Positions 1 to 32,490 of a DNA stretch of 64,000 nucleotides are shown here, piece by piece. This stretch comes from Psammoneis japonica. Its lineage: Eukaryota. The stretch lies in contig QPGO01000014.1 in the NCBI GenBank assembly GCA_008632985.1, positions 496,001 to 560,000 on the forward strand, given 5' to 3'. The stretch's first letter is position 1. Each line of letters begins with the position of its first letter. The notes beneath the pieces are model-generated. The model was not told the DNA's origin. It saw only the letters and a list, made by a program, of their open reading frames with translations, and ran no database searches. The translations under genes and the position numbers were made by a program.

Positions 1-1
1 T

Positions 2-3263: not shown

Positions 3264-3622
3264 TCTGTCAGCATTCTTTCTTAAACTCACAGGACAAGAA
3301 GCTGCGCAAGCATTGATCGACCAGCACATGGTGGGGAATGGTGTAACTCAATCACTTTTTATCAGAGGAAGCACATGCATTGTCAATTTTAACAACAAAA
3401 TAAGTTTTCTTTGACACTTGTTCTCAACACGTCAGCACTCGTTCAATGCTGTTGTTCAGCCACAAATGCAAGGGATGCCACCACCCCATGACTAAATTGT
3501 GGGGATCTAGAATGCATGGCAGTTCCCAGGTTTCACACACTTTCTCAACTTTCAACCAAAGCAAAACTGGTGCACATGCACACTTTTCGAGTGCCCCATG
3601 GAGTGAAAAACAAGTTCCTCAT

Positions 3623-4226
3623 GCTTCTTGTGGACACAACTTGTGGTCTGAGATCCACTGAATGAGAAGTGTCAGAATTGGTGGGGTGGGGCCACAGACC
3701 TGCCTCTCTGCAGCAAGCAAGCTGAAGGTGTTTTTTGCCACACTGCTCACACACACACTCACAACTGCTGCAGATTGGATTGGCATGTTTTGTGCAGCTC
3801 TTGTTTTGTGGCAAGCAATGGTGTGTGATTTTTTGGGCATGTGCTGTGGCACAGGAGTCCAGGAGGCTCTTTCCAGGGCTCTTCCTGGCTGCCCCAGCTG
3901 CACAAAGAAAAGCACATTCTGTGGCCCTTTGCAGCTTCTTGTGGACACAACTTGTGGTCTGAGATCCACTGAATGAGAAGTGCCAGAATTGGTGGGGTGG
4001 GGGCACAGACCTGCCTCTCTGCAGCAAGCAAGCTGAAGGTTTTTTTGCCACACTGCTCACACACACTCACAGCTGCTGCAGATTGGATTGGCATGTTTTG
4101 TGGCAAGCAATGGTGTGTAATTCATTGGGCACGTGCTGTGGTGCAGGAGTCCAGGAGGCTCTTTCCAGGGCTCTTCCTGGCTGCCCCAGCTGCACAAGGA
4201 AAAGCACATTCTGTGGCCCTTTGCAA
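3623..4226. repeat. Tandem duplication, ~311-bp unit x2, in hypermutated 3' flank; related sequence at ~19830-20450 and ~23620-24150
   Basis: gcttcttgtggacacaacttgtggtctgagatccactgaatgagaagtg starts at both 3623 and 3934. Confidence 0.85.
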
Positions 4227-4551
4227 CTTGTTGCCTCTCTCCTCTTGCTCCTGACAAGGGCAGCCACTTGCAGCACTCCCCCCCCTGCCCCCACCTCTGC
4301 AAGCTGCTGGTCAGATCAAAGCTGCCTGAGACCCTGCACTTTTCTGACAAAACATGCCATCTGCAGAAAATCTTGTTGCTTTTTTTGTCTCAAAACAGGC
4401 AAAGAAGGGCAGACAAGCAGCTTCATTTTTTGCCAACCACAAGGCACCACACAGCTGCACCAGCACCCAGCCAAGCCAATGTGCTGTCCTGCCAAACACA
4501 AACACACCTGTGCCTGTCAACTGGTGTGGGTGACACATTGTCATGGTGCCC

Positions 4552-5798
4552 ATGGCAGGTGAAGCACTCAATTGTGGAGTGAATGGTGTCATGCAAACTG
4601 AAAAGAGGGGAGACGCTCTCCACTGCCAGTTGACATTTCAACCATCAGCCACAATCCTCCCAGTTGTCAGCTGAGTGCACCAAGTTGGAAAGCCAATTTG
4701 CTTGTTGGAGCTTCAATGGCAACAAGTCAAGCAAACAGTTTTGAGCACTGTGATTTGCAATGGAAGATGCCTTCTGCTGCTGTGTGCATTGTCCACAGGA
4801 CAGGAGAAGCACCTGAACTGTGTCAAATCCAGGTGCCAATCCACTGAACACCACCAACCAAAATGTGATGCTGCAAAGTGCTGCCAACCATGGCATTTAG
4901 CATCACAGGTGCTGAAACCACTGCCAGTGAACCCCATCATAGACAATGCTCTGGGAGGTGAGGTGTGGCTGGCCTGCACAGCACAGCTGGAAGCACTGCC
5001 AGCCACAGCTGCTGCCACCTTTGCCACAAGGTGCACAAGGCCTGCCAGGAGGGCCAGCCAAGCCAGGCACACTGCTGCTGCTGCCACTGGTGATCATTTG
5101 CAATTGCCGAGGCAATTGTGCCATGGCTGCCAATGATCTGCATCAAAGAAACTGTGCTGACATCATGCAAGATTTTGTGTGCCCATTCAAGAGCAGTCAT
5201 GACACAACCCAGCTGCTCTTTGAGACCACACATGTTCAGTGCTGGGGCATGATTTGCCTGTGGCACTCATGCAGGCAGCACACACTGCTGCACAGCAGCC
5301 GCAAGCAGCCCACAATGTTTGTGTGGTTCAGGTCTCACACCAAACAACTGGGCACCCCACTGCAGTGGTGGGGCCACCACAAACATGGGATGGCAACATG
5401 AGCACCATCAGCGGGGATCTCACACAATGGGCCAGCATTGTCTTGCCGTGGTGCCTGAGGGACTGCACGAACATGTGGCAGCCAAAACACAGTGCACAGA
5501 AGATGCAGGAAACTGTGGTGGTCCCACTTGACTTTGTCAACCTGTTTCTTGCAGCACTGCTTGCTCCCAAGCAAGTGTTCACCAGACTGCATCATGCCAT
5601 GATGGCAGTGAATCATGCAGCAGCATGCAGGTCCATGTTGGATTTTCTGAAAGCAGCATGTTGTGTGACAGCACATTGGATCAGCACATGTCAGTGGTGC
5701 TGCACAACTGGCCCACTGTGCCCCAACTGTGAAATGAAGCACTGGCTTGCTTCTTCAATGCTGTGTGGTGCAGCAAGATCTTCCCAATGGGGCAGGTC

Positions 5799-5830
<32 letters not shown>

Positions 5831-8421
5831 CTGCATCAGTGTGAGCTGGTGTGGCAGCCACCACAGAGAGCTTGATGACAGAGCAACAATGCCAGCAATG
5901 GTTGTGTGCCATTGCCAGACAGCAAGCAGCAGTGTTCAGCAAGACCCCAGCTGAAGTGCATGAGGAGTTTGGGGTGGCTGAGCTCATGTGGATCTGTCAA
6001 GTGCGTGATCAGGCAAATCTCTCACAGCCCCCCCTTCCAAAGAGTGATCAACTCAGCACAGTTCAGAACTTCATTGACAAGTGATGCCAGGCACATTCAG
6101 AGTGCTTCAATGTGCCAGTGTCTGTTGACAACCTCATTGGTGAGCTCATCACACATGTCACAGCATGATCAGCAGATTTGCGCAGCAGGTGAAGGGGTGC
6201 CATTGCTCTCCTGGACACAGGTGGAGCAAATCACATGTCATGTGCTGCAACATGATGCATCGGCAGATTTGTCCAGGTGAAGGGGGGCCATTGCTCATGA
6301 ACACATGTGCCTTGGAAGTGCCCAGTGATGCCATGGCAGCTGCCACCACTCAAGCTGTGCAGCAATCATTTGATGGATTGCACACAGAGTGCTCTCAGTG
6401 GTGGTTGGAGCACCACACCCCCTTGTCCAATGGCTTGTCAATGTGAGGCAGCATGCCATGGACACACATGCCAAAGACTTGGCAATGCCATGAACGAGTG
6501 CAGATGTGCTGCTGGCTTCAGAGCCAAGAACACTCACACATCCTTGTGCCATTTAGCACACCACTGCCAATTGTCTCAGAGGCTGCAAAAGGAGCATGCA
6601 CCACTGGCAAAATGGACATGTCATTGACTGTCAAAAAGTCACCCACACTTGTGCAGATTGGTGCACCTGCACCATCCATGACCAGCAAGGGCAGCACAAT
6701 GCTGGGAGACAATGCCACTGTCTGCAATGAACACTGTGATGAATGGTTTGAGGAACTGCAAAGCTGACCCAGTGTGCACTCTCATGCAATCAAGCTCTGT
6801 TGCATCAAAGAAAACACAGCTCTCCCCGCTGACTTGAAAGCAGCACAGCAGCAGTGCCTGCCATGCCATTGCAAAAGGGTGCAGCGCAACACCAACTGTG
6901 GCTCTCATGCTGACCAGCCACCACAACAACTGCAGCAAGCAGGGCCAATTGAGCTTGCTGGAGTGGGAAAAGCAGCAGCACTGGATGACCAAACAGGCCA
7001 TTGGCACAATGGCCCTGCGGCACAGTTTGGGGACTGGAGGCCAAGAGCTGCTGGTGCCTGCATGGAGAAAATCTGCACATCCACTGCTGCCATGAGTGCA
7101 GGCTAGAAAGCAACAACAGGCCCACCCACCATGTGTGAACAGGAGACAATGCAGCATCCACAATCACCAACAAACCAGGCAAGCAAATTTCATGTGATGA
7201 CATTGTCCTTTGCTCAAGACACCTCAGTTGCTTGTTGCATGTGTGCCTGGTGGGGGCAATTGGGGGGCATTAGAGAATGCACAGAGCTGCCCTGCACACC
7301 ACCTGCTCACAAGCCAGAAGTGTCGTGGGGTGCAACCTCATTGCAAGCATGGTGCAGTCATGTGCTGCTGCCAATTGTTTTGGCATCATGCATGAGCACA
7401 AGCCTCTCAATTGGGCTGGTGACACTGGCACCCTGCTTTGTCAATGCAAGGGATCAATGACCACCATTGGGCCTGCTGCAAAATTGCTGCAGTGCCAAGG
7501 ACAGCACCAATGCTGTGCCATCAGCACCTCTTGCTGTGCGCTGCTTGCCAGGCTCTCTTTCAATGCTGCTGATGATGATGCAGGTGTTTGTCTCCACCAA
7601 AATGCCTGGCACACCATGTCATGTCTCTTCTGCAGGCATCTCAGGCTTCCCCCGCACCTCCGTTCTGGCTGTCAGCCCTGGCAACCTGGGGTTTGCACAC
7701 CCTGCTGATGTTTGACATTTTTGAGTGGTTGGAGCCATGGTGCTTCTTCTTTGCACCCATGTTGAGTGCTGGCAGGGTGGAGAACTCTTTGTCCTCCTTC
7801 ACCTCAGCACCAATGTTCCCCTTGCCCCTGCCAACTCACAAGTTGGCCTCATGCCCAGCACAACCCTCCAGGTGGGCCTGCCCTCCTGCCAACTGCACTG
7901 GTCTGCTCACACTGCAATGCAGGCGGGGGCACTGCTGGCACAGCCAGCATGCTGCCCCTGATTGGAAGCAGAAAGGGACCAACTGCACCTCCTGGCAAAG
8001 TGCTCCCATCCCTGCAAGTCCTTGTCTGTTTGTCACCTGGATTGGTGCACACCGCAAGAGGTCGTGGCAGGCAAAGCAGCACTGGCCACTCTGGCCTCAT
8101 GTGGGCTGACAAGGAATTGTGACCCATTGCCAGTTGATGACTCATCTGCAGCTCCCATCATCAGCTGAGTGTGCAAAGTTGGCAAAAAGTGCTGCTGCTT
8201 TGCTTGTTTTTCAAATGAGCTTTGACAGCAGCAACCCAGGCACCAGACAGCTTTGATGAGTGCTCTCCCATCTTTCTCTTTCCCTGTGGCCCTGTGCTGA
8301 TCTTCCAGCTTGGGAATGTGGCTGGAGAGGGACCAGCTGTGCCTGGCAAAGTCCTCCCATCCCCACAAGTCCTTGTCTATTCTTTTTGCTTGTTGCCTGG
8401 ATTCGTGCACCGCAAGAGGTC
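4552..8421 (+). mobile_element. Degenerate, internally deleted Ngaro-like tyrosine-recombinase retrotransposon related to 33926-40300
   Basis: Translated fragments align with the element at 33926-40300: gag (VVGPPQTWDG vs VVGPAEPWDG; LDFLKAACC vs LDFLRVACC; ARQQAA), RNase H (GTLLCQCKGSMTTIGPAAKLL..NAADDD) and YR C-terminus (SPGNLGF..GAMVLL). Split repeats: A1 ~4552-4700, B1 ~7970-8062, A2 ~8063-8200, B2 ~8325-8421. Left boundary approximate. Confidence 0.75.
5798..5831 (+). repeat. (CAA)11 microsatellite
   Basis: Read directly from sequence. Confidence 0.95.
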
Positions 8422-9440
8422 AAATGAGCAAAACAACGCCAGTTGCCCACTGTCCCATTTGATTCCCAAGTCAGCAAAGGCATCGAAACATTGCAAAAAA
8501 AGAACAGAAACCCAAATAATTTACGGTGCACACGTGCTGCAGAACCACAGCTGAAAAAATCGTAGTTTTTGCGGCGCAGCCGCGTTTTCATGCAAAAGCG
8601 CGAAAACCCATGGGCCTTTTTGCGTGGCGCAGCTGTGCAGAAGCATGAAAAGCACGCATGCCTTGTGCGGCTGCTTCTAAAATCCAAAACAAACCTTGGC
8701 ATAACTGGCATGTTGTTGACAATGACAAACTTTGTGTTGCTGCCACCAAACACACAACAAGAGTTAAAACTTTGGACATTGCAGATCGACAGACACTGCC
8801 ATGAATTTTTAACTGCATCCAATGCCAGAAGATCCAGTTGTTTGCTGTCCAAAAAGATGTCATGCAAATCAACAACGGCTGCCACCGATCCATCACTCGC
8901 CGATGGCGCGATGCTCGAGAAGGGGGAATCTCATGCGCTGATTGTCAGAATGCTGTGAAGGCTGCCCTCCAATCAACTGTTTGTGACATCAATCACCAAG
9001 AATCAAGTGCAGGAGCCATTCAGTGCATGTTTGCCGTGCACAATGGTGGTTTGGCAGGAATGTTTGGGAAAGGGAAAGCAATGTCTGTGAGACAAACATT
9101 GTGAAAAAAGTTCAAACAAAGCAACATTGCCCAAGACTTGGATCTTACCTTTTTTGGCAGGCGGTGTGGAAATCAGCAATGGCATTTTGTTTCCCGTGGA
9201 AGCTGTGACACGAGGAATTCTCTTGCAAACAAGCCGCCCCAAAATCAAGCTGCACTCCCTGACAAGTTGCTGTCAAAGCTTTGCCTCTCCCTTGAAAGAT
9301 TCCATTGCCAAAGAGCCACCAAGAACAGGTCAAGAGAAACTCACAACGAAGGAAACGAATGAAAGAGACAATGCACCGGCCCCACCAACAACAATGTCGA
9401 CGCAACACCACACCCACAAGAACAAGCGCAAACAAAAAGA

Positions 9441-9860
9441 AACAGAATGAATGAGCATCCGTGTGTTTTACACACAAAATTGCAGCAACACGCTCATGCC
9501 TTGTTTGCAATGCTGCTGCTCCTTCTTCCAGAATCCAAAGAGGAAAAGCATTGCCATCTGCGAGAGCTGCTGTGTCCTGTGGGCGCAGATGAAAAAAGCA
9601 GGAAAAAAACAGAATGAATGAGTGCTCATGTGTTTTGTGCAGCAATTCCAACAACACACTTGTGCCTGTTTTCCCAATGATGCTGCTCTTTATTCTGCCA
9701 AAACTTCAAAGAGAAGAAAGACCATCGCCATCCAAGAAAGCTGGTGTGGTGTCCTTTGGGAGTGGATGTAGAAAAGAAACAGAATGAATGAGCACTCATG
9801 ACATTTCACACAGCAATTTCAATGACTCATGCCTTTTTTTCAACACTGCTGCTCTTGCTC
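9441..9860. repeat. Three diverged ~168-bp tandem units
   Basis: aaacagaatgaatgag...tgctgctc recurs at ~9440, ~9607 and ~9777. Confidence 0.7.
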
Positions 9861-10143
9861 TTTGTTCTTCCAAAACTCTTAAGAGAGAAAAAGCCATTGA
9901 CTTGGAGATCCCAAACCACGAATGCTGCAGCCGACAGAGTGAGCTGCAAGACCGTGATGGAGCAACTCCACGCCCCATGAACAACACCATTCCATTGTAA
10001 CCAAGCGATTTCAATTTTCGAACAAGCGCTCGTGTGATTGTCATTTTTACTGTCCAACCAACTGCACGCTTTAATTGTGTTGTCACGGTCTGATCTGCAA
10101 AACAACACGGACGGCCTTTGGTGAGAGACATGGAAATGGACAC

Positions 10144-10384
10144 TGACAGAAAATGAAGATGACTGGGTGGAAGAAAACAACAACTCCTTGCTGCTGTCTA
10201 AATGGCAGATGAGTCTCCGTGCAGAGACCATTGCAGGAGCCAAAAGACTGGTGTCGTGATGTTGGCACTGCTGTTGTTGTTCTTGTGAGCCTGTGGCTCA
10301 AAAGCAAACTACATCGCGATGCACGCAGAACTAAGAGCACACATGATTGTGTGTGACAACCAAAATCTTGTTCAAATCCTGTCA
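10144..10384 (-). repeat. 3' LTR of Copia element (241 bp)
   Basis: tgacagaaaatgaag...caaatcctgtca, direct repeat of 14509-14750. Confidence 0.95.
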
Positions 10385-13300
10385 CTCCCCAGTTTGCTTG
10401 AGGGGTCAACAGCAACAGATTCAAGGTCAGATTGGTTGAAAGCCTCAGGATCAAAGTTCCAAAACACCAGAGGATGAAGGAGGTTCCAGATTTGGGAGTG
10501 ACCCGAATGCTTGCTGAGGATGTCAGCCGGGTTGCGGGAGCCTTCGATGAAATGAAACTTGAGGAAACCGGAGGCAATCGCCTCGAGCACATGATGGAAC
10601 GAGAGGGCGGTGTGTTGCTTGTGTAACTTGGAGTGCGGGATGGCAGCACTGTCCACAACCGACTTGTTGTCCCCAAACATGTAACATGTTTCACGAGTGG
10701 GAACGCCAAGGTGACGTAAAGTGATGCGCAGATCAAGAGACACTGCTCCGGAATGGACACTGTTGATGGGCATGTCTGTGAGGTGTCCATCGGCAACAAG
10801 CCTTGCTTTGTGCCATCCGTCATGTTTGACATCACAGACGAGATGCACCCGGATCTTCTTGTGTCCTGGTGGAGCACTGGAATCATTGTGGTGTCCGCAG
10901 TCATGGAAGACCTCGTGCTCATCAAGCTGAGTCATCTCAAGGTCTGTTGCGTCTCCCCACTTGCGGTTGCCGTTGCGCTCATCAAGGGCCATGGCATGCT
11001 TGTAGTCCCGTGGCACTTCATGCCCGTGCTTGCATCGTGGCACAGTGCAAAAGGAGCATGACTTGGCTTGGTTGGCCATGCGGAGTGGCTTCTTCTGGCA
11101 AAGGGCTGTCTTGCAAAAACGTCTCCATCCTTCAGTTTCTAGAAGGCCGTGCTCACGCGCACAGACAGCACAGGTGATGGGGTCATCCTTGGCAATGATG
11201 GCAAGGGGTTCGGACGTGATCTCCCCATTCTCCCATTCAAGCATGACGTTGTAGCTTGAGCGTTTCCAAGAGGGATCATGGGGTCGCAATGGTCCTTCGT
11301 GCGATGCGATGCATCGGAACTTCCAGAGGGTGGTGTCCTCATCTTCTTGCTCAATGTGGTGCATGATGTCATTGCAGGCTGGGACTTCCTCACATTCGTC
11401 ATTGTTGACGGAGCAAATGAACTTGACCAGTTCAGGATTGTCTCCAATTTTCCAGTCGTGGTCCTCAACGGCTTTGACGATGCGGGCTCTGTGGCGTTGT
11501 CCATCCTCTTGTGGCTTCATGAGGAAGGTGCATCCTGTGACATCCTCGGGGTCAAGGATCGGCATTTTGGGCATCCTGATCACCTCCCCATCTGGTGAAT
11601 CTGGTGAATCCGCGGAGTCGTTGCGGGATTTAATGACAGGTTCAGCAGATTTCTCATCAGGAGGATCAAGACGCAGGTTTGGAGCAGACGGATCACGGGC
11701 GGAGTGCACGTTGGAACGGCAGAGAATCTTCTGAGTGTCGTCAGAAAGAATCTTGAACGTCATTTGGTGACCAACGTGCTTGGCGATGCCAACAAAGTGA
11801 CCACACAGTTCACGGGATTCGGACGGCCAGTCGGAATCATCCAGGTGGCAGTGCACGGTTTCCCACCATTGAAAGCGGAGGAGCGGGCTGATGTCGGGAG
11901 TGGAGCCAGATGGCACCTCAGTGGGGGCACGCTCCACTGGTTGATGATCGTCGATGCCTTGGACGTCAACCTGGCAACCAGTGCAGACAATGACATGAAC
12001 ATCATCACCGGCGATGCCACCGTTTGCACCACGATCCACTGGAGCACCTTTGTGAGTTGACTTGTGGGTCAAGGCAGAGCAGACGACATTGTGGTTGTTG
12101 ACGCGACGGCATTTGTGGCCGTTGATCTCAATGTCAGTGTCACTGGGCTTCGCGTCGGAGTGAACAGAAGGTGCAGAGCCGGGCAGTTTTTTGCCAGAAT
12201 GGGCAGAGGGAGGCCGTTCAGGTGCCAGGAGACATTGCAAGTCCCCGGGTGGCAGGGGCTTGCACCTGGTGAGATGAGCCAGAATGGGGTTAGCATCGGC
12301 TGCAGCGTCGGATTGTGCGAAGGCTGATGCAAGATCGTGAGTGTTGGCGGACAAGTTGACATTGCCATTGCTGCCAATGCAGAGGTCGTGCAGGTTGACC
12401 GCCGTCAAGTCATGGCAGTTGCCGGTGTGGGCGGTGCGCGAGCCAAGAATGATGGCCTTGGTGGACTGGGGCAAGGTGTCCCAAATGCGCTGATGGTCCG
12501 GTGGGATGCGATGCCATTGTTCCTTGGGTGAGGGAATTGCCACAAGTTTGCACAGCATGAGCTTGGATGACGTCAACATCACTGTCAATGTCGAAGAATG
12601 CATCGTCGTCAGGGTCGTCAGGGACTGGGTCATGTTTGTAGATGGCACGGCGCGGAGTGCAAGGAGCCGTCTTGGGGGCAAACGTGCTGTCGCACTGTGC
12701 TGCAGCAGAAAGCAGGAGTCCACAGCACTCTTCGTAAGAGAGCCCCTTTCCATTCTGCATGCGGAACTGATCGGCCTGATTCTTCACCAAACGGAGTTCT
12801 TTGACAGGATGAATGGCATTCTCAAGCATGACACGTTGCTGGCCAGCAGAGAAATGGTCCGCACCCGGGACAAGAGCTTCGTGCTTGCGAAGCTGGTCCT
12901 GCCAGTGAAGTGTGAAGGCATGAGTGGATCCCTTCCAGGTGCCATCACCAAGGCGAGCAGTGGTGAGGTGCGCGAGAAGGGTCGAGGACTCCAGGGATGC
13001 GCGAGTGGAAGAAAGGGCGCACTTGGAGAGGTCACGATGCACCGCTTGAGCATCAGAGGAGCCGACATGTTGACAAACAAGTGCCTTGCCTTTGTCATTC
13101 TGCAAGATCCGTTCGAACACTGTGAACATGTGCTTCTGTTGTTCGTCAAACAGGGCCTTGTCCTCAGCTGTAGAGGGCTTGTGCGTTGGATCGAGAATGC
13201 GTGCAATGTCTTGGGAGCGGGCCTGTGCGATGATGGAGGTGTGCCACGTGTGCCACTGTTTGTTGGACTTGAGAAGCGCGAAGGCAAGTGGGTCACGTTT

Positions 13301-13732
13301 GATGCCTTGTTTAAAGTCACGCACGGGATCACGTGGTTTGGGTGGCAATGAGCTGGGAGTGGGAGCAGATGGTGCTGCACCCATGGAGAGGGACGCCACA
13401 TGCTCAGGACTAAGACGACAGTTGGTGAACTCCTCTTGTGTGAACAATTGAGGGTCATTGCCAACATCCGCGCTGCTGCGCGCTTTCACCGTGTGCAGGC
13501 TAATCAGTGCAGCTGTCTGTGCTTTGTAACCACATGGCAAGTGCATTTGATTGGTGCTGTTGTTGTGCACAAGGGCATCCAATTGCATCGGAGTAAAAGT
13601 GAAAAGGTCCTGATGTGAGTCGGTTCCATCAGTGTTGAGGGTGGAGCACAATGGACTGTCTGTGGCTTGACTCAGAACAGTGCCCAGAACATGCTCGAGG
13701 CCATCGATTTGTTGTTGCCTGGTGAGAACCAT
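10372..13732 (-). pseudogene. Copia gag-pol remnant: frameshifted; integrase core deleted near 11935, RT core deleted near 10740
   Basis: ORFs 12410-13732 (gag) and 10372-12753 (pol pieces). RT motif VHSGAVSL is joined directly to RNase H DLRITLRHLG. Confidence 0.85.
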
Positions 13733-14508
13733 GTTGCAACTGGGTGGATGTTGGAACCAGCTGGAATCAGAGTGTGGGCTTGAAACAACTTGAAACTTGA
13801 CTTGAATCTTGACTTGATGTCTTGAACTGTCTCAAGAGTCAGAAGCCGCCGGGCTGTGATGTCCCGTTCGTAGTTGAAAGCCAAGCTTCCCATCCGGTCC
13901 GTAGAGTTGTGCCGGCACGTCTGAACCTGCAGCTGGCGCGATGCTTTGAAAAAGCTGGCTGGAGGTGGACAAGACCTCCGAACTGTTCTCATTTTATGTC
14001 GGTTGGATGACCCGATCAGGCCGGCCAAATTTGGCGCTGTGGAGGGATGAACAAATGTGGGAAATGCACCCTCGCCCCAACGCGGGCTGCAGTCACGAAC
14101 TGCTTCCTCTCACAGTTGTCCTCGTGGACCTTGTGGGACTGTGGAGGACCAGCAATTCAGCGCAGATGCAAGGTGGTGGACTTGGCGTGTGTGGAGCAGA
14201 GCCAGAGTCAGGGGTTCATGTCGTGTGCACGTGGGCGCGAGCGGATGGATTGGCAGGATCCGCTGTGAGGAATCCGGAATCTCGGATGTGTGAGAATTCG
14301 GGAATTCCTGGTCAAACAAATGTCCATTGAATGAATGCATCCAACAATGGGAGGCATTGGACAAATCCAAATGTGTGGATTTAATCCAGTGTCCAGCAGT
14401 GAAGAAGGCAGACACAGTGCTTCCACCGCCAATGGCGCGCATCGTCGAAAAATTTCCCGATGATGATGATGAATGCCCAATGGACAACAAAGAGCAAGGC
14501 TGTCAATC

Positions 14509-14750
14509 TGACAGAAAATGAAGATGACTGGGTGGAAAAAACAATGACTCCTTGCTGCTGTCTAAAAAGCAGATGAGTCTCCGTGCAGAGACCGTCACAG
14601 GAGCCGAAAGACTGGTGTCATGATGTCGGCACTGCTGTCATCATTCTTGTGAGCCTGTGGCTCGAAAGCAAACTGCATCGTGCGATGCGCACGGAACTAA
14701 GAGCACACACAATTATGTGTGACAACTAAAATCTTGTTCAAATCCTGTCA
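14509..14750 (-). repeat. 5' LTR of Copia element (242 bp)
   Basis: Direct repeat of 10144-10384. Confidence 0.95.
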
Positions 14751-15370
14751 GACACATCCAGTTCATGCAGCAGCCTCAAAATGACAGTCGCCAAAAGAGA
14801 GCCCTTCTCACAATCATTCTTTGCGTGCCGCTCTTGAGTTGGTTCATTGTCGACACTGCCGGGATCAATGCGACGATGATGCACTGCCGATTTGCATTGC
14901 AGTGCCAACGATGATGAATGTGATGTGTGAGGAGGAGGAGGAGTCTTGGGCGTTGTCGTCTTGCTTCCGGCGCGTTGTGCGAAGCCTGCATCCCACGCGG
15001 GAAAACCGTAGAAAGATTGCCACGTAGACTCTGGTACAGATTCCGTTTTCGCGAGGTTATCGTACGAAAATGGGTCAGTGCACAGGGAAAAAGTGATAAA
15101 ATGAAATGTGCAGGGCTTAATTGACATTTTTAGTGAGAGACAATGACCTGGGTCTGAATCCTGTACTGTAGTCTACATACTCAACTTACGGTAGCTAGTA
15201 GAATAGGGCCTAAGTGTATTAGTTCATCTCGATGACTCATTGAATGACTGAATGACCAAAGCTAGAGAGTCGCAAGCATCAAGCACTCACTTCTTGCTCT
15301 TCGCGATGAAGGTCTTACTGTACGAACGATGAGAGCAACGAAAACGACGTCAAACAGCAGAAAGCTTAAA

Positions 15371-18300
15371 ATGCGACGCCTATCTTGCGCTATATTCACT
15401 GCATGTTGGACGCTCATGTCTCTTTTGCCATGCGCCCATGCAGGATGGTCAAAGAGCATGAGCAAAAAGGACAAAATCATGCTTGACCAAGTCATGCAAG
15501 GCCGAATCGAGCTGCCGACCGACATGAAGTTTTTCGTCAAATATTTGAACCGAAAGGGTTTGAAATTTGCCAAAAGACAAGCTCGAGGAAAGACCCTGGA
15601 GCAGCATCTTAAGGAACAAATGGTTGTGGCTTTGCATCCGCGCACTAGGAAAGCGTTGAAGAGATTGACAAAGAACGAAAACATTGCGTACGTCGAGCCG
15701 GTCCATAAAGTACGTGCAATGCCCTTTCAGAGAACCAAGAATGCAGAGGTAGGCAGAGGAAGACGACAGCTTGCAGAATCTATTGCTTGCGGAGTGAAAA
15801 TGGTTCAGGCATCGGAGCTGTGGAGCATTCCACCAGTAGCGAAGACCAAAATATGCATTGTCGATAGTGGATATGGGTTGGGTCACCCTGATTTGCCTGA
15901 TAACGTAACTGGAACATCAACAAGGACTGGGCTTTGGTACGAGGACTCGTACGCACATGGCACCCATATATCGGGGATCATTGGCGCAAAAGGCGATAAC
16001 AACTTGGGCGTCGTAGGTGTGATTAAGGACCCAAGTAGATACGTTGACTTTCACATTGCAAAGTCTCTGGACGGCAAGGGGAAGGAAATGAAGCAGATTT
16101 AACGGACGCATTTGAAGGATGCATCAAAGCCGGTGCCAAAGTCATAAGCATGAGTTTGGGTGTTGAAGATCACAGCGAAACCTTCAATGCGATTCTGAAG
16201 GATGCATACGATAATGGTGCATTGATCATCTCATCTGCCGGAAACGGCGGAAACTTGGCCTACTCATATCCTGCATCCTACCCGTACGTCATGTCGGTAG
16301 CAGCTGTTGACAAGGACATGAACGTGGCTGGGTTCTCGCAATTTAACGACCAAGTCGAAATCGCAGCTCCAGGAGTTGACATAGTCTCCTCGGAACGCTG
16401 AACAGTGGGAGAGCTTTTGGACATGACAGTTGGAGTGGTACATCAATGGCGGCTCCTTTTGTTTCGGGGATTGCTGCGGTTTTATTCTCACACTTCCCGG
16501 GATGCTCGAATCATCAGATAAGGGCTGTTCTCATTCGAACGGCATTAAACGAGGATCTCGTTGAGTGCAGTGACGATTTCGGGTTTGGCGTTGTACAAGC
16601 CAAGGCGGCATATGACTTGTTGAAAAAGGATGGATGCATTGCCGGTGATGTCTCTCCGAGGCCGCTATCCGACGGTGCGTACGGAGGATGCGATCAAGAT
16701 CCAAATTATGTTCCACCGCCTACAGGCGCACCAACCGCATTCGCCTGCGGAGACATTGTTTTTCGACTCGAGCTCACAACGGACGAATGGGGTGAAGAAA
16801 CATCCTGGACAGTTAAGAAATCCAATGGCTATGTTGTTGGCTCAGGGAGCGGTTACCGCAGCTCTACATCTTACACTGAAAATCTATGCCTTTCTCCTGA
16901 CGCGTACACATTCACTATTCGAGATTTGGAGAGTGATGGAATATGTTGTACGTACGGTGGAGGATCATATTCCATAACTTGGGATGGCATATTGATTCAA
17001 TCAGGGGGGCGTTTTACGGACTTGGAAGAGATTTCGTTTGGTGAATCGCTCAGCTTGGGACTAAGGTATCTCTAGAAGGCGCACCCTCTCTATCGAAAAC
17101 AGGCTGCGAAGACGATGCCAGCTGGCAGTACAACACCAAAAAGGGGGGGAAGAAAAAATGCAAGCACTTAAATGCAAATCCATCTGCTAGATGCAAGTTG
17201 TTGGGGCGGAACCAAACGGGGCAGTTGACGTCTGGCTACGATTCTTGTCCGCTTTCATGTGGTGCTTGTCCAAGTCTACCGGATGAGAAATCATCATCAT
17301 CAAGCCCATCAACACCAGCACCAACGCCTTTGCCATCCTTTCTTCCTGCAACGCTACCTCCCACCAGATATCCGACGTTTTCACCAACTTTGAACCCAAG
17401 TGAGTATCCAACACGCGCACCTTCGCTTTTACCTACAGGGCCGCCTACAAACCAACCGACGGAACATCCGACAACTACGTCAACAGTTCGACCTTCTCAA
17501 AAACCCACATTGAGTCCAACGAATACCCACATTCTTCCCTCACCTCTTCACCTACTCTGCAACCGATAAGAACGTCGGATGTAGATCTGTCGCCGCCTCC
17601 TCCGCATCTAAATGTGAGTGTCCTCCAGACTCTTCGAGGGATCGACATGAACAGTAGATTTGGTGTGTGCGTTGAGTTCTCTGGAGATGGAAGCACCATG
17701 GCTGCAGGGGCCATCAACAAAAACACCGTCATAACATGTCGATGGGATGGCAATCAGTGGAATCTTTTCGGACAAGTACTTCGTGGAAGTGGAAGTTTCG
17801 GTGGTCGAGTAGGGCTGAACGAGGACGGCACAATCCTGGTTGTCGGTGCGAGAAGTAACAATGATGGCGGCTACCAAGCTGGACAAGTCCAGACATTTAG
17901 AATCAACTCAGATGATAGGTGGGTTTCTCATGGACAGCCAATTCCTGGTAGATCAGATGTTGATCACTTTGGTTGGGATGTGGCCATCTCAGATGACGGA
18001 CGGACAATCGCCGCTGCTTCCTTATTCCGTGGTGATCTATCGCGACAAAAAGTGGATGCCGGTTATGTTCGAGTGTTTACATGGGCTGGCAATAAATGGG
18101 TGCAACTAGGATATGATATCGAAGGTGATGTTGCTCATATTTGGCTTGGTCGAGCCATCGCATTCGATTCAGCTGGACGTAGAATTGCCGTCGGGGTTGC
18201 GAAAGGTGGAGATGGTGCAGGAAGTGTAAGGACTTTCGACTGCGTAAATGGTGCCTGGCGCACTGTAGGACAGGCGCTCATTGGAGACGCTTCTCATGAT

Positions 18301-19556
18301 TCTCAAGGTACAAGTGTCGCCCTTTCTGGGGATGGCTCTATTCTTGCCATTGGTGCCGATGGCAATGACACAGGCATGGTCCGAGTGTACAAACTTTCGG
18401 GAGGCTTGTGGACCCTACGAGGACAAACTATTTTAGTTAGAGATGGTGGGGGAAGTTTGGGGGGTGGTCACCGGGGTTTGTCAGGTGACGGGAATGATGG
18501 TGGTGGAAGTTTGGGGTATGGTCACCTGGGTTTGTCAGACGACGGGAATCTTCTTGCTGCAGGAGCACAAAATCTAGGCAACAAAAGGGGCGAAGCCTAT
18601 CTTTTTCAATACGATAATGTCGCTAATCGATGGGAGCAGATCGCAAAATTCGCCGGAGATCGTGATGGTGGCACTTTTGGACATTCAGTGGCGTTATCCG
18701 GCAACGGTTCTTTCTTCGCAGTCGGAGCTCCTGACGACGGTACCGGTTACATTCGTGTCTTCTATGTGGATTCGTCAAATCCTACAAATCAGACCAAAAA
18801 TTTATCTTTCGTTCAGGTTACAAAAGCGCCAGCTGCTCCTATCGCAGTTTGCCGAACTGACATTTCTGATCGGATGTGCAAAATGGCTTGCACCGAGAAA
18901 GCGCATTCCCGTATAGAAAAGAAGCGCCGAATGGAGATAGCATAATGTGCTGCTCTGGTAAAGAAGCCTGCATGAAAGAAAATCTTCGAGGAACAGGCAA
19001 GACGCTTAATGCGAGAAGTTTTGACTATCTCTGTTGTCAAGGTGAGAAAGCTTGCGCTGAATCGTTAATAGAGCTGCCTCGAATCGGTGCGGTGTGCACC
19101 GGATACAAAGCATGTTTGCAATCAAGATTTACAAAAGATGACGAGAATCAGACAAGTGAAAACATTGGGATAACCTGCCTGGGAACCGAGGCATGTAAAA
19201 TCACCGATTTTGAGGGTGCGGGGCCCGTCGACTTGTGTTGTGCTGGTCAAAAAGCCTGCGAAAAGGTCTGGGATGGAAAACAAGTTCAAGGGCTCGACCG
19301 ACATAAAGAACGAACGGAGAGGCTGGGTCCCGAGAATGGTAGTCGGGTACAGTGCTCGCCATTCGACCGGAGGAGTGGAGTGTGTTACGAGAGTCGCTTT
19401 GCCGAAGCAGGTGGGTCGGTGGAAGTTTGTTGCACGGGAATGTCTTGCGGGAATCTTTGCAATGAGGATGGATGTAGGTGCAAGCCATACTCCGACAATG
19501 CATCAGTTGCATGTAGTGATGGTTCCAGTGCCTTGATTTGTGGACTTGGCTATTGA
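15371..19556 (+). CDS. Secreted subtilisin-like protease (S8), copy 2, full length: signal peptide, prodomain, D/H/S triad, propeller, Cys-rich tail. Five apparent -1 frameshifts.
   Basis: MRRLSCAIFTACWTLMSLLPCAHAG signal; ICIVDSGY (Asp), HGTHISG (His), AGN, GTSMAAP (Ser). Frame breaks at ~16081, ~16390, ~17060, ~17530, ~18899. Confidence 0.85.
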
Positions 19557-20524
19557 TCAGTCAGCATTCTTTTTAAACTCGCGGGACAAGAAGCCAATGT
19601 CGTAAAAGCAATGAGATGACCAGCACATGGTGGGGAATGGTGTCACTCGATCACTTTTTGCTTTTTATTGAAATAAACATGGTGCATTGTCAATTGTAAT
19701 AACAAAATATGTTTTTCTTTGATGCTTATTCCCAACCCATTGACGTTCATTCAATGCTGCTGTTCAGTCACAAATGTGAGGACTGCCACCACCTGACTAA
19801 ATTCGGGATCAAGCGTGCATGGCAGTTAGTAGAATTGGTGGGGTTGGGCCACAGAATTAGAACATCAACAAGCCACTGAGACACTCTGGGCTGAGCATCA
19901 AATCATGGTTGGTGTGTGAGACCGACCACTCTGCAACAAGCAAGCTGAGGGTGTTTCTTGCCATGATGCCAGTGTGTTTTGCATCACACCTTCAGGGCAA
20001 GCAATGGTCAGTGCAAGTTTTTTTTTTAGCACAGCCATGCAGCACAGCTTGGGGGGGGGGGTCCAGGGCTCTTTCTGGCCAGCCATGCAGATGGAAGCAT
20101 GCTTTTCTCCTTCTTGCTTGTCATGTCTCTGCATCCTGTCATGCTGTGGCAGGCTCTTGGGTGGGTTTCCCCTTTTGTGGCTTGCCTCTTTTCTCACCAC
20201 TGAGTGCACCAGCAGCACTTTTTCTTCCCAACCTGTGTGAGTCAGTTGGGTCAAAAAGACACCTCAGGTTTTGTGCTTTCTCCTGTCAAAGCACACCATT
20301 TGCTTTCTCTCTGCTTGTTTTTCCAGGAGGCCTCAGGACAGCTCATCTTGGACCATGATGTGGCAGTGACTCATGCCACCCCCACATGCACAGGAAAAAA
20401 GTTTTGCACTGCAGCAAATCTTGTTGTTTTTCTTCTTTGGACTTTCAAAAAAGCAAGCAAAACAATTCAATCAGGGGAAAAGTTTCATGAATGTGAAAAA
20501 GATGCTTTTTAGCAAATTGCCAAG

Positions 20525-22240: not shown

Positions 22241-25200
22241 GACAGCCTGTCAATGCTCTGCCCAGTTTTGAACACAGCACCAGCAAAATTGTGAATCTTG
22301 TCTCATCTTCTTCAACAGATGTGTTGTTGACAGAAGGCTGCAAGATCTTTTGCCCCACATTGTGAGGTTGTCATGTTTGACAGAAGGGAGTTTGATTTGT
22401 GATTTGAGCTCCCCATGAGTGTCAAGCACCTTCGTTGTTGTGCAAACAGGTTTGGACATTGTTGCTTCTCCTCGATGTAAATTGCAAAAGTGGTGCTCAT
22501 CTGTTTTCTGTTGCTTGCTCTGGCACTTGCTCAAGATTGCCCATCTTGTTGATTTGTGTTGGACCAGGAAATTGTCATGCTCATGTGATGAGCAGCAGCA
22601 GCACAGAACTTGTGTCTTGTCCAATCACACAGTCACAAACTTGAACATTCCATGAAAGAACAGCAGTCGGCAACATGTTCCAAAGCCATGAAAAATTCAT
22701 CTAAAGCAAAAAGCTGCCTGAATGTGTCAGGTTGCAGAAATCACCTCAGGAGCTGGTGGGGACCTGTGTGCCAAAAAAACCATTGTGTTCTTCAACTGGG
22801 CAAATCTGAGCAATCTTGTTGTCTTCACTGCATGACTCCAAGCTGGCAAGATGCTCATGCAATCTGTCATCTAAAGATGTGATTTCCTGCATTTGTCCAC
22901 ACTCAACAACAGCTCCACAGGTGCCAGAGTCTTTTTTTTTTGCCGGGCATTTTGCAAACATGAACATTGGAGTTGGCTGTTCTGCAAAGAGGCAGCTGCA
23001 AAAAAAAAGGGACTCAGCAGCACTGGCGCAGCTGCACACTGCCCCAAGCATGACCCATCCTGGTGCAAAGAATTCCCACTTGGGACAGCACTGTCTTTGG
23101 CAGCAGCATGATGCCCACATTTTGCAGAGTGATTAAAAAAACATGGTCAGCCCATGGCAGCAATGGAGAAGGTGGTCTCAGCTTTTCATTGCAAAAAGTC
23201 AAGCTGTTTTTGTGCAGACGCGATGGGGTGCACTTTTGCTCCTTCTTGTTGACTCTTTGTCAGGGCTCAGGTGCTTGACCTGTGAGTGCCACAACAGCTT
23301 GTCATTGACTCTTTGTCAGGGCTCAGGTGTTTGACCTGTGAGTGCCACAACAGTTGTTGAAAACATTGTTTTGCCACAAGTTTTTAAGTTTTGCTCTGGT
23401 TGCAGGTTTTGGCACAACTCGTTTTGCACATTTCCTGTGCATGCACGGACAGACAGTGTTGGTGCATGGATGGTGCCTTGACTGTGGTCAGGCACTTGCA
23501 ATCGTTTGTTTTGGCATCACCCCAGACTGCTTCCTTTGCAAAAGCATGCTTTTGTCATGCTCACTTGCCACACATCTGTGCCATGTCACAACATGGCAGT
23601 CAAATGGTGTGGGCAGCACTCTCTCCTTTTGTGCACAGCTTGTTGCCTCCCTCCTCTTGCTCCTGAGAGCACTGGCAGTTCTCTTTTTTCCCCAACCTGT
23701 GCTTTCCTGCCAAAAGATGCCACATTCTTTTTCTCTGCCTGTTTTCTGGAGGCTTTGGCAATCAACTCACACTCTTCTCCCGGCACCCATGTTGGCATGG
23801 CTCACACCTCCACCCCACATCATGCCCAGTGCACCAAAAGAAGGAATTCATTTTGCACTGCAGCAGTTCTTGTCATGCTGCTCCATGTTTCGCTGCAAAT
23901 CATGTTGTTTCTCTTCTTTTGGCTCTAAAAAGTGCAGGGGGGCTTTGTCCAGCAGCTTTTCCAGTTTTGCCATGCAGAGGCCCAGGGGCACCCAGCTGCA
24001 CCACAGGTGGTGCACCAGCCAGCACCCAAGAAAGCATGCCCCACAAGCATGCCTTTGAGGGACATTCATGACCCACCACCTGTCAATTGAACTTGGGCAA
24101 CTCATCATCATGGCACCACCCATGGCAGATGCAATGTCTCATTGTGGACTGACCCATCAACCCATTTTGATTCTGATCCAGCAAAGTCATCAAAATGTCA
24201 TGAAAGAAGGAAAGAAACACACTTAAAATGAAAACAGTTGTGGTTGCATGTGTTCTGCAGCATCACAAGTGCCAATCAAAATGGTCAGATCTGAGGAAAC
24301 ATGAAAACTGTGTGGGTGACAATGATGATTTTTGAAGGTGACAATGACCTCTTGGGCTTGCATTGTTGTTGCTTCCTCACAGTCACTCATTGAATGACTG
24401 TCCTGTGATTGGCAATTGGCCGCTGCACTCTCCCTTGCTTCATTTCTCAGCAATGCAGGTCTTGTTGCTGTGTGGATGATGAGAGCAATGAAAATGCCAC
24501 CAAACAGCAGAAAGTTTAAAATGCAATGCCTGTCTTGTGCCACATTCATTGCAACTTGGTCTTTCTTCTTGCTTTTGCCATGAACCCATGCAGGATGGTC
24601 AAACAGCATGAGCAAAATTACAAAATCATGCTTGACCAAGTCATGCAGGGCCAAATCGAGCTGCCAACCAACATGAAGTTTTTTGTAAAACATTTGAACC
24701 AAAAGGGTTTGAGATTTGCCAAAAGACAAGCTTGAGGAAACAATGTTGAGCAGCATCTTAAGGAGCAAATGGCCACGCCTTTGTGCCCACATGCTGGGAA
24801 AGCATTGAAGAGATTGACAAAGAACAAATGCATTGTGCACATTGAGCCAGTCCATGAAGTGCATGCAGTGCCCTTCCAGAGAACCAAGAATGCAGAGGCA
24901 GGCAGAGAAAGATGACAGCTTGCAGAATCTGTTAAACAGTTGAGGCATCTGAGATGTGGAGTGTCCCACCAGTGGCAAAGACCAACATGTGCATTGTTGA
25001 CAGTGGTTGTGGATTGGGTCACCCTGATTCGCCCAATGACATGACTGGAACATTGACAACAAGGGCTGGGCTTTGGCACAAGGATTTTGTGCGCACATGG
25101 CACCCACACATCAGGGAGCATTGGATCAGCAGGAGACAACAACTTGGGTGTCATGTGTCATCAAGGGCCCAAGCAGATGCATTGAATTTCACATTGCAAA

Positions 25201-26358
25201 GTCCATGGAGGGCAAGGGAGAAGGAAACAAGGATGATCTAATGGATGCATTTGAAGGATGCATCAAAACTGGTGCCAAAGTCATGAGCATGAGTTTGGGT
25301 GTTGAAGATCACAGCAAGACCTTCAATGCAATTCTGAAGGATGCACATGATGATGGTGCTTTGATCATTTCATCTGCCAGAAATGGCAGAGACTCAGACC
25401 CGTCGCAGTCGTGATGAAGGGGTGCAATTCGGGGTGCAATTTTGGGGTGTAAAAACGCGCGCACCCCTCAAAAAAAATTACAGCCAACAATTGCCTGTCC
25501 TGAGGCATGCAATTTTTGCCTGTAATTTTTCGTAAGTGCCTGCAATTTTTCATGCAAAAACAGACTCATCGTCCATGATGGCAACAAACATCAGAGTGTC
25601 GAACAACAATGGCAACCAACAATCAACGACGAACTTCAACCAGCAAGAGATGCAAGAACTCGTTGATGGGGAACTGTTGTGACATGTTTGTGAAAGAAAC
25701 AATGGCAAAAAACGATGAGATTGCCATGACGGACAACAAAATGAAGGCAAGTTCATGCCACTTCAGAAGAAAAACACGTCATGCAGTTGCTGAAACCTTG
25801 GCCATGGATGCAACAGTGACACATGAGATGGCCGGGGTGGGGCTAGTTGGTCACACACGTTTGGGTTTGATGCAGCCGTGCAGCTGGCCACACCCTGCAG
25901 GAAAAGCTGTTGGTGGCGCGCGAGCAGAAGCAACAAAGCAAAGAACATGCATGAGGAGTCACAACATTGTAAAATGATGCGACAACAAGCAGTGAGAAGA
26001 AACCCAACTTGACCCATGAATGCAGTGCACAAATGTTGTCCAACAACTTCAATGGCTCTTGTCCCTGCTTGCAGATCAGCGAATGCCGCTCGCGTTGCTC
26101 GCCATGGTGTTGTTGGGCATTGTGTCGTGTTGTTTGTGTGCGTAGAACAACCTTTCTATTTATCCCACAGTGACTCTGTTTTGGCAACAGCAAATCTTTA
26201 GCAAATCTTTTGCTGCAATGAATCTGAAGACATTTTGAGAAGTGCTTCGGGGCGACCCTGTTCAGGACGTTAAATGGAAATCTTTTTTACTCAGATTCCA
26301 GAGTTCTTTCGGGGTGTTCTGTGCATGAGATTTTTGAATTGCTGTGTGCACGCATTGA

Positions 26359-30095: not shown

Positions 30096-32084
30096 GACTT
30101 GTCAGAACAATGATTTGACATGCGCAAGGTCGCAGCGGAGCCGCCGAACACCATGGTGTTTTGATGCTGTCAATAGAATGTTCAGCTTCGTGCACAAACA
30201 AGTTGATTGAAATTGGAGATGTGGAGTCATTCCTGGTTAGTTATCAACAATTTTTGAGGAGCACATGTTGAATGAATGTGTCATTTCTCGCAGAATTGCA
30301 GACGTCCAATTTCACACTCTCGCAGTCGTGAAAAAATCGGGTGTAATTTTGGGGTGTAAATTCACGCGATGCGCATTTTTACACCCCCAAATTACACCCC
30401 AAATTACACCCCATTTTCCACGACTGCGACGGGTCTCAGCCTGCTCACATCCTGCATCCCACCCATGCATCATGTCAGCAGCAGCTGTTGACAAGGACAC
30501 AAACACAGCTGGGTTCTTGCAATTTAATGACCAAGTTGAAATCACATCCCCAGGAGTTGACAAAGTCTCCTTGGCAAAGCTGAGTGGTGGAAGAGCTTCT
30601 GGAATGACAGCTGGAGTGACACATCAATGGCTGCTCTTTTTGTTTTGGGGATTGCTGCAGTGCTCTTCTCACACTTCCAGGAATGCTCCAATCATCAAAC
30701 AAGGGCTGTTCTCATTGAATGGCATTGAACAATGATCTCATCAAATGCAGTGACAAGGTTGGTCATTTGTTGAGGAAGAACAGATGCATTGCCAGTGACA
30801 TCTCTCCAAGGCTGCCATCCGATGGTGTGCATGGAGGATGCAATCATGATCCAAGTTGTGTTCCACTGCCGGCAGGTGTGCACAAACTGCATTTGCCTGC
30901 AGAGACTTGTTTTTTTGTCTCAAGCTCACAGCTGATGAATGGGGAGGAGAAACATCTTGGACAGTGAAGAAATCCAGCGACAATGTTGTTGGCTCAGGGA
31001 GTGGTTGCCACAGCTTTGCATCCCACACCAAAAATCTGTGCCTGGCTCCCAATGTTTGCACATTCGCTGTTCACCATTTGGAGAGTGATGGAATTTGTTG
31101 CACATGTGGTGAAGGAGGACCCCACTCCACAACTTGGGAAGGCATGTCAATTCAAATAGTGGGGCATTTTGTGGACTTGGAAGAGACATCATTTGGCACA
31201 TTGCTCAGCTTGGGGCCTGAGGTGTCTCCAGATGGCACCCCCTCTGCATTGAACACTGGCTGCAAAGACAATGCCAGCTGGCAATGCAGTGCCAGAAAGG
31301 GGGAAGAAAAAATGCAAGCACCTCAAGGTGAATCCATTTGCAAGATGCAGCTTGTTGGGATGGAACCAAATGGGGCAGCTGACATCTGGTTGCAACTCTT
31401 GTCTGCTTTCATGTGTTTTTTGTGTCAAAGTGTGCCAGATGAGACATCATCAGTGACTGTGATCATTGAGAACCAGATGCCACCAAGCCCATCAACTGTT
31501 GCACCAACACCTTGGCCTGCACCCCTTTCTCCAAATTGTTGCCTCCACTGTTGATCCAACATCAGTGCCAACAGCCCAGCCTTCACCAAAACCCACCTTG
31601 AATCCATCACACATCCCAACTCCAGCACCCACCCGTTCACCTGCAGGGACCCTGTCACATCCACCCATGGCACGTCCAACGGTGACACCAACAGTGAATC
31701 CAACAAGCATGCAAACAACTCCAGCCCCAATGGTGGCAACCACCTGACTGCCAGTGGCAAGGTTGTCATTGAGTGCTGCTGTTCCTGCAGAAACATGGGA
31801 AGTGGCCAACATGATTTGTGCAGTGTGGCACGTGCCAGGGACAGCAGATCTGCTCACCCTGGCAAAATCATCAATTGCAACAGCTTTCTTTGTTGCAAGG
31901 GACTTTGCAGCTTGTGCAGACAAAACCTTTCTTGGCTCTGGCAGCTGCAATCATTTGTGTTGTCAGGGTGTGAGTGCGCATGCAAGCAATCCTTCATTGA
32001 GTTGCCAAGTGCAAGAGCTTGCTGCAATTGTGTTCAGGCCTGTTTGCAGGCACACTTTGTGAGAAAAGACAAAGCTCCATTTAA

Positions 32085-32486: not shown

Positions 32487-32490
32487 TCAA

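Follow-up and report, generated by a model that had tools for sequence, protein, structure and literature searches.

Copies of a Ty1/copia-like long terminal repeat (LTR) retrotransposon in the diatom Psammoneis japonica lose the dinucleotides TpA and CpG, far above background and after insertion, and both losses end in CpA or TpG. The pattern was followed from a single element on the minus strand of a 64,000-nucleotide stretch of contig QPGO01000014.1 (assembly GCA_008632985.1, positions 496,001 to 560,000; here called the window, with positions counted from its first letter) to 36 LTR pairs with a checked target-site duplication, all of one retrotransposon family: 22 older pairs, the window pair included, and 14 younger ones. 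TA and CG are the sources of change and CA and TG are stable sinks; the conversions TA>TG/CA and CG>TG/CA are two separable processes that differ in speed and have no common spatial pattern. The first of these is best accounted for, with a probability of about 0.55, by deamination of genomic adenine at TpA by a candidate TadA/ADAT-type enzyme directed to silenced chromatin, acting beside the decay of methylated CpG. TA/CG rewriting of this kind cripples the elements and gives them an apparent age several times the true one.

The LTR pairs and their differences

Alignment of the two LTRs of the window element gives 23 mismatched columns in 240, and two indels (1 nt at 10173 and 2 nt at 14680-14681). 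Columns belonging to pyrimidine-purine (YpR) dinucleotides are half of the total, so that chance alone would place about half of the transitions there; 21 transitions are found in the 120 YpR columns and one in the 120 others (Fisher p=5e-6). The 21 transitions make up 16 dinucleotide sites (five CA/TG, seven CA/CG, one CG/TG, two TA/TG and one CA/TA), and the non-YpR columns contribute one transition and one transversion that form a single TG-versus-AA site. A first-pass annotation of this DNA had counted by eye 16 of 17 substituted sites as CG/TG/CA/TA interchanges, plus two indels, and had quoted four example differences; pairwise alignment reproduces the counts exactly and contains all four examples. 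Every one of the 23 differences lies in a TA- or CG-type site, as defined below, and 0/184 elsewhere, a count that is partly circular in that the site classes were drawn from the same alignment.

The older pairs (set 1) derive from 40 regions around LTR matches, which contained 34 candidate pairs; 22 had a matching duplication, and of the 12 dropped ten showed at least three mismatches in the target-site duplication and two were rows of one element with an unclear end. The younger pairs (set 2) derive from 20 regions selected by likeness of their reverse transcriptase to that of a foreign relative, with LTR similarity disregarded. They represent a younger subfamily with a 276-bp LTR, and six of the 20 regions were dropped (four without a pair, one without TG..CA ends and one with three mismatches in the duplication). 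Transitions occupy 415 of 2718 YpR columns versus 49 of 2661 others in set 1, with 39 transversions, and 223 of 2016 versus 5 of 1848 in set 2, with 5 transversions. The rate at these sites is thus far above background, as the annotation had proposed, and non-YpR divergence of comparable extent was not seen across the 36 pairs of this one family. The duplications themselves differ by one base in five of the 36 pairs (L082, L062, L076, L068 and L196); the L082 pair has TA on one side and TG on the other, which means that host letters at the junction have also been struck.

Sources, sinks and the direction of change

The annotation treated YpR as one fast class, which is right for TA and CG and wrong for CA and TG. 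Among 63 YpR sites in the 44 LTRs of set 1, 33 are invariant CA/TG, 15 are CG-type and 15 are TA-type. CG-type sites vary among CG, CA and TG, with TA in 0 of 660 cells of the alignment, and TA-type sites vary among TA, CA and TG, with CG in 1 of 660. Within pairs, the fixed CA/TG sites are no more divergent (21 of 1451 columns) than the non-YpR columns (54 of 2613). In element interiors, 32 of 16350 sink cells have become TA and 126 have become CG.

Polarity comes from outside the family. Fourteen positions carry tyrosine in 85% or more of 120 outgroup proteins; the cells of the 22 older copies there comprise 33 with TA, 119 with TG and 63 with CA, and of the rest 33 are TT or CT and one is other. 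Of 462 cells at conserved His, Gln, Trp and Cys codons, 459 show no change, and a change to TA occurred in none. In the window, a host gene has two dead copies, which have lost nearly all of the TA and CG of their intact relative and have gained next to none (Table 1). From the outgroup tyrosine codons and the dead host-gene copies together it follows that TA and CG both drain into CA/TG. [quoted passage not shown] A consequence is that TAA and TAG stop codons are lost, which leaves long open frames in dead DNA and can mislead gene prediction.

Timing, patchiness and sequence context

Both strands are affected, with 2250 TG and 1996 CA outcomes in the sense of the element. The annotation held that the process acted in situ after insertion, and this is borne out: LTRs belonging to a single element arrived at the same outcome at 129 of 224 TA sites lost from both (0.58), versus 0.60 for LTRs of unrelated elements, and in the younger set at 74 of 119, versus 0.58 between elements. 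Independent LTR outcomes, together with the same loss in host-gene copies that are not retroposed, indicate that the DNA was already inserted in the chromosome when the process struck it. A few TA-type sites are common to both LTRs in most young copies, an indication of variation in the source elements. Strand-coordinated runs were sought in both sets, and none was seen: neighbouring hits share an outcome with a frequency of 0.49-0.53, as in permutations (z<1.2). There is no strand sharing between neighbours at any distance tested, and hits therefore look like independent single events.

The process is patchy. Two older copies (L056 and L088) keep 60-66% of their TA, versus 4-25% in the other 20, and their CG loss is ordinary; both were excluded from the context and rate counts of the older set, which leaves 20 copies. 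In three of the 14 young copies the 5' LTR is nearly spared, with 2-3 of 18 sites lost versus 12-16 in the 3' LTR. Since these LTRs have hundreds of homologues, pairing alone does not set the target. Sequence context is consistent between sets: TAY is struck about twice as fast as TAR, ATAY is among the fastest contexts, and CTAA and TTAA are the slowest. A>G changes outside TA show a lean of NAY over NAR in the older set, weaker in the younger, and because of this lean the "background" clock may carry some off-target activity.

Rates and the dating of LTR elements

The five youngest copies have lost 52-68% of TA, 5-7% of CG and 0.09-0.28% of other sites. From these fractions, the loss of TA per base comes to about 130-600 times that of background sites, and TA events are about 10-18 times as frequent per site as CG events. 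In the 20 older copies 569 of 4652 TA cells and 4540 of 8842 CG cells are left, so that 88% of TA is gone against a background of 13.7 A>G and 10.8 C>T changes per 1000. Loss of CG in this set is about 30-fold background per base, and the excess of CG>TG/CA is present on both strands. The two losses are uncorrelated along individual copies (rho 0.03, n=189 windows within copies); across copies they correlate, with rho 0.48 in the older and 0.64 in the younger set, which speaks against full independence of the two processes, though age alone would also cause it.

LTR dating assumes that the LTRs of an element are identical at first and diverge with age, and its described bias, from gene conversion, is towards underestimates (PMC7251063, in its accessible part); the bias in this diatom is towards overestimates. 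The annotation had expected such an overestimate, and in the older pairs the inflation is about 5-fold: the Kimura two-parameter (K2P) distance for the 22 pairs is 0.105 over all columns versus 0.019 over non-target columns, a ratio of 5.6. In the 14 younger pairs it is 14-fold (235 of 3862 columns, or 6.1%, versus 12 of 2743, or 0.44%; 95% range 8-27), and for the window pair at least about 6-fold. The target sites saturate, and raw divergence therefore compresses age differences, such that K2P spans merely 0.065-0.15 across the 22 older pairs. Unless sites derived from TA and CG are masked, LTR ages in such genomes would be 5- to 14-fold too high, and also compressed.

Relation to known systems

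To our knowledge, no natural enzyme has been established to hypermutate chromosomal adenines as a genome defence. The closest parallel is in integrated DNA of nucleocytoplasmic large DNA viruses and virophages in the rhizarian Bigelowiella natans, where a TpA-restricted A:T>G:C hypermutation is described (Mettrop et al., bioRxiv 10.64898/2026.01.13.699255). In the accessible text of that preprint the TpA-only spectrum was measured de novo in mutation-accumulation lines, and an ADAT2-type enzyme was proposed as a candidate, without proof. The two cases are alike in that A:T>G:C change occurs at TpA only, gives TpG or CpA according to strand, and is local and far above background; silent or foreign DNA is the target in both, and both are heterogeneous, the activity being present in some lines of B. 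natans and sparing some loci and segments in the diatom. They differ in their targets, rhizarian viral inserts versus multi-copy LTR retrotransposons, repeats and dead host-gene copies of a stramenopile, and in the state of the process, which in the diatom is near saturation and accompanied by strong CpG decay, with evidence that is comparative. The terms "CpG", "diatom", "LTR" and "retrotranspos" occur nowhere in the accessible text of the preprint (10.64898/2026.01.13.699255), and a literature search, mostly of open-access sources, found no report of TA erasure in a diatom. The TpA signature has been in print once, in that preprint, and the diatom LTR case adds kinetics, context, patchiness, three of 49 metagenome relatives and recent TA variants in a host gene beside the element.

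In RIP of ascomycetes, which depends on RID/DNMT4, TpA is made from CpA. The diatom process shares with RIP that dinucleotide-specific transitions, arising after insertion and directed at repeats, disable elements and distort LTR dating. It differs in that TpA is removed, there are no strand-coordinated runs and the loss is patchy inside a fully homologous element. The change that RIP would produce, CA>TA, was seen in 32 of 16350 cells and in 0 of 462 conserved CA/TG codon cells.

Engineered TadA editors act substantially on CA and on other contexts, and CA is a stable sink in this diatom. Editors derived from TadA resemble the present process in making A>G changes on DNA with a preference for a pyrimidine before the edited A, as stated in the part consulted of 10.64898/2026.07.20.739671, and differ from it in that they are engineered and need an R-loop. 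As for CG, DNMT5 methylates copia elements at CG in Phaeodactylum (PMC9998398, accessible part); decay in such methylated diatom transposons would account for the CG>TG/CA part, and the methylated class there is that of copia-like elements. Methyl-CpG deamination, however, cannot change A:T pairs, and it is the slower process and the minor part in young copies.

A candidate mechanism and its alternatives

In the proposed scheme the adenine of 5'-TA-3' in genomic DNA would be deaminated to inosine and read as G at the next replication, such that a hit on the top strand would give TG and one on the bottom strand CA, either of which would destroy the target. Targeting would be to silenced or foreign chromatin domains and not to paired homologous sequence, and hits would accumulate singly and independently over many divisions. 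A second, slower and one-way process, the decay of methylated CpG by change of 5-methylcytosine to T, would also end in CA/TG. Adenine deamination is favoured because the de novo measurements in B. natans gave an equal spectrum and because TadA descendants prefer a pyrimidine before A; the CG part is read as methyl-CpG decay because of the DNMT5 methylation of copia elements in Phaeodactylum. The effect may be one of defence.

Profile searches of the genome returned 27 DNA-methylase matches, nine matches to PF00383, which include a dCMP deaminase and a TadA-like gene (L124), and four matches to PF02137 (A_deamin) at two loci, where there are two separate adenosine-deaminase genes (L139 on C40, and L140/L141 on C79), the second perhaps just an ADAT1 paralogue. 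A gene that joins a TadA-like zinc deaminase to a 2-oxoglutarate dioxygenase (DIOX_N and 2OG-FeII_Oxy; L126:313-1785, minus strand) was considered as a specific candidate and dropped, being widespread in diatoms; it probably serves base catabolism. Cytosine-methylase genes at L136-L138 (G000 C301 and C297), some of them with stops, lie in TA-erased, CG-rich DNA with 16-23 TA versus 139-167 CG per 3.5 kb, and may be methylase-bearing mobile or viral inserts struck by the TA process.

Several points weigh against the deaminase reading. The PF00383 and A_deamin genes look like housekeeping deaminases and none is linked to the process, and no chromatin-reading domain was found in the stretches scanned of the TadA-like, PF00383 and A_deamin loci. 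An edited A and a damaged T opposite it would leave the same trace in the sequence. The specificity for TA over CA (CA>CG in 126 of 16350 cells) is far stricter than that known of engineered TadA editors, and a deaminase that moves processively along single strands would be expected to leave strand-coordinated runs, of which there are none. Set 1 was chosen by similarity to the window LTRs, as the best 40 of about 970-980 candidates per search, and the site classes were taken from the same alignments, which brings some circularity into the "non-target" counts; neither the split into YpR and non-YpR nor the outgroup test has this fault.

Two alternatives are each considered unlikely. In one, the T of 5'-TA-3' in silenced DNA would be oxidised or otherwise modified, to 5-hydroxymethyl- or 5-formyluracil, and would pair with G to yield T>C. 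The resulting spectrum is formally identical, since a TA>CA change read from the opposite strand is TA>TG, and the observed context can be read as a preference for 5'-RTA. Thymine modification of repeats is known in dinoflagellates and 5-formyluracil mispairs with G, although such lesions are weak mutagens; the genome has no match to the Tet_JBP profile (PF12851), but the profile was silent in control genomes as well, and absence of such an enzyme does not follow. In the other, the T:G mismatch left by methyl-CpG deamination would recruit a polymerase of the Pol eta type in an error-prone patch repair with the signature WA>WG, and TA loss would be a by-product of CG decay. This would explain why TA and CG losses occupy the same domains and correlate across copies, short patches fit independent single hits, and Pol eta favours TA over AA. 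It is improbable in view of AA>AG, which at 6.5-21.6 per 1000 is close to background where 88% of TA has been lost, of the excess of TA over CG events in the youngest copies, of the lack of a spatial link between the two losses within copies and of the TA-poor, CG-rich loci L136-L138. The hypermutable regions of B. natans, in the accessible account, show TA hits and almost no mutation at G/C.

The remaining alternatives fare worse. TA might be turned into CA/TG by gene conversion with a GC bias, or by a biased repair of T:G where repeat copies form heteroduplexes ectopically, with CpG decay cancelling the next step, in a family that has hundreds of copies and in which A>G outside TA is a little more frequent than C>T (13.7 vs 10.8 per 1000); conversion between LTRs is documented in plants (PMC7251063, accessible part). 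Conversion merely sorts existing variants, however, and should homogenise LTRs, yet the two members of a pair have independent outcomes. A:T in contexts besides TA is left unconverted, the B. natans target, as far as its available description goes, is single-copy, and in young copies with 93-95% of CG intact CA/TG>CG is not visible (30 CG in about 12,600 sink cells), all of which makes this explanation very unlikely. Editing during retrotransposition, of RNA from A to I or of cDNA, or reverse-transcriptase error, would be non-chromosomal; ADAR/ADAT-type enzymes prefer U before A, according to the accessible discussion of 10.64898/2026.01.13.699255, and the few TA-type sites common to both LTRs could be counted in its favour. 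Yet it predicts changes on one strand and LTRs that are alike, TG and CA are nearly equal and LTR outcomes independent, and the tandem host-gene copies show the same loss without having been retroposed, so that it is close to refuted. Least credible of all is ordinary methyl-CpG decay combined with RIP-like gains of TA from CA, or a sequencing artefact. About a third to half of the window's 16 sites are indeed plain CpG-type changes; for the TA sites, polarity set by the outgroup tyrosine codons and the near absence of CA>TA among sink cells refute it, and the TA-poor flanks are reproduced without a difference in contigs from a public sequencing run, from which, however, the assembly may itself have been made.

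If adenine deamination is the correct explanation, its setting may be wider. A tentative and rather doubtful extension is that diatoms possess a natural, chromatin-guided DNA adenine deaminase system, a "reverse RIP" that would act on TpA of silenced chromosomal DNA at hundreds of times the background rate and would still be at work in cultured cells. It would also spill over into host genes next to silenced domains, be present in several species and share its origin with the Bigelowiella process, as an old defence of the stramenopile-alveolate-rhizarian (SAR) group through A-to-I editing of DNA. The hundreds of paired LTRs provide a built-in time series and a context motif that can be matched against candidate enzymes, and CRISPR tools exist for diatoms. 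A strict TpA editor would also be of interest for base-editing work.

Relatives in metagenomes and recent activity

Erosion of tyrosine codons to Cys or His is present in three of 49 metagenome relatives (L156, 10 of 21; L172, 15 of 15; L178, 12 of 13), with observed/expected ratios (O/E) of TA of 0.13-0.31. Among the remaining 46, each with 0-2 changes of this kind, are several in which CG has been lost and TA kept. Intact copies are more readily found by the search patterns, and 3/49 is therefore not a prevalence. L178 and L156 are at most 71% identical to this genome among the 40 candidates scored, and so come from other organisms. Strong loss of CG (O/E 0.13-0.30) with ordinary TA, which is CpG decay without TA erasure, is seen in L147, L153, L175 and L187-L190.

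Short-read contigs of one run (X1) differ from the host gene that flanks the element at the TA sites 15838, 15872, 17067, 17810 and 18742, at full listed depth; a second run of the same sample (X2) has the window letter at the first four, at a depth of 3-5. One X1 contig, 15798-16071 (274 bp), has 17 differences, of which eight were shown, six at TA and two other A:T>G:C, and it matches none of the five assembled paralogues found. The comparison covers 40 of 154 rows, contigs drop alleles, and the other listed differences are explained by paralogues. The X1 differences may be allelic variation or an unassembled copy, and they are TA-dominated and recent either way, which suggests very recent or allele-specific erosion of a host gene beside a silenced domain.

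The element and its surroundings

The element is bounded by TGACAG...CTGTCA ends and by a 5-bp target-site duplication, GACAC, on both sides, which by pairwise alignment make it an LTR retrotransposon on the minus strand (Table 1). It is 4607 bp long, versus about 6.8-7.3 kb in full-length relatives, and most of its reverse transcriptase gene is gone; the pol remnant has Cys, His and His at the three outgroup-conserved tyrosine positions left in it. A Pfam search of the element's two frames gave no match. No RNA record carrying the element was listed, a result that is uninformative about expression. Its assignment to Ty1/copia comes through homologues, since PF07727 (RVT_2, the copia-type reverse transcriptase) is present in all 120 listed homologues of the reverse transcriptase frame of the family copy L056. 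In L056 and L088 the integrase presumably lies upstream of reverse transcriptase and RNase H, an order taken from known motifs in their frames.

Table 1. Features of the element and of neighbouring DNA in the window
Feature	Position	Strand	Basis or remarks
Target-site duplication GACAC, left	10139..10143		Alignment; paralogous empty sites have one copy
3' LTR, 241 bp	10144..10384	-	Remaining: 3/15 TA-type, 4/15 CG-type sites
Purine-rich tract beside 3' LTR	10385..10400	-	Common to family copies; polypurine-tract role predicted from position
pol remnant with internal deletion, 803-codon open frame	10372..12783	-	No Pfam match of its own at E<=0.01
Open frame in gag position, 473 codons	12410..13831	-	No Pfam match; putative role, from position
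Conserved stretch just within 5' LTR	14495..14508	-	Primer-binding site predicted by position
5' LTR, 242 bp	14509..14750	-	Remaining: 4/15 TA-type, 9/15 CG-type sites
Target-site duplication GACAC, right	14751..14755		Alignment
Older low-copy repeat receiving the element, about 10 paralogues	8581..15092		Itself eroded at TA and CG; empty sites in paralogues
TA-erased domain containing the element	3501..15000		TA O/E 0.00-0.16 per kb, 4001 to 15000
Flanking host subtilase/FG-GAP gene, TA-normal in window	15266..19500	+	Pfam; compared with short-read contigs
Dead copy of host gene	24450..25394	+	Lost vs intact: TA 29/32, CG 42/44; gains 0 TA, 2 CG
Second dead copy of host gene	30439..31452	+	Lost: TA 30/31, CG 50/51; gains 1 TA, 2 CG

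The genome scanned comprises 91.4 Mb in 597 contigs, and each search with the window's LTR gave about 970-980 candidates. A transporter gene near the element has its best named homologues in diatoms of pennate type, in agreement with the host. The repeat that received the element is not single-copy, and all of the paralogues compared are eroded. Within the TA-erased domain the CG O/E is 0.03-0.09 at 4001-8000, yet 0.61-0.76 within the element; gene-bearing kilobases of the window mostly have a TA O/E of 0.34-0.72. Blocks with a TA O/E of about 0 lie at 3501-15000, 20001-25000, 31001-33000, 43001-46000, 55001-56000 and 61001-64000, with sharp edges (for example at about 15010), and several of them, the older ones, also have a CG O/E of about 0. 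The subtilase and FG-GAP genes form a tandem family (1-3524, 15303-19827, 24450-25394 and 30417-31452, and also L117 and L119), in which TA-normal copies stand beside dead ones erased at TA and CG.

Positions 34001-40000 are GC-rich and contain open frames of 670 and 876 codons without a Pfam match; the TA O/E there is 0.14-0.34 and the CG O/E 0.67-0.91, possibly the mark of a younger target. A degenerate long inverted repeat at 27492-30084 has arms of more than 1 kb that are about 77% alike and differ largely by TA/CG-type changes, and it is likely a relic of a DNA transposon. Elsewhere in the genome, L020, L026 and L028 each have an LTR with internal sequence on either side and are thus tandem elements with one common LTR. 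L002 and L005 are 99.4% identical over 1.85 kb that includes the LTR and flank (three mismatches), and represent alleles or an assembly duplicate.

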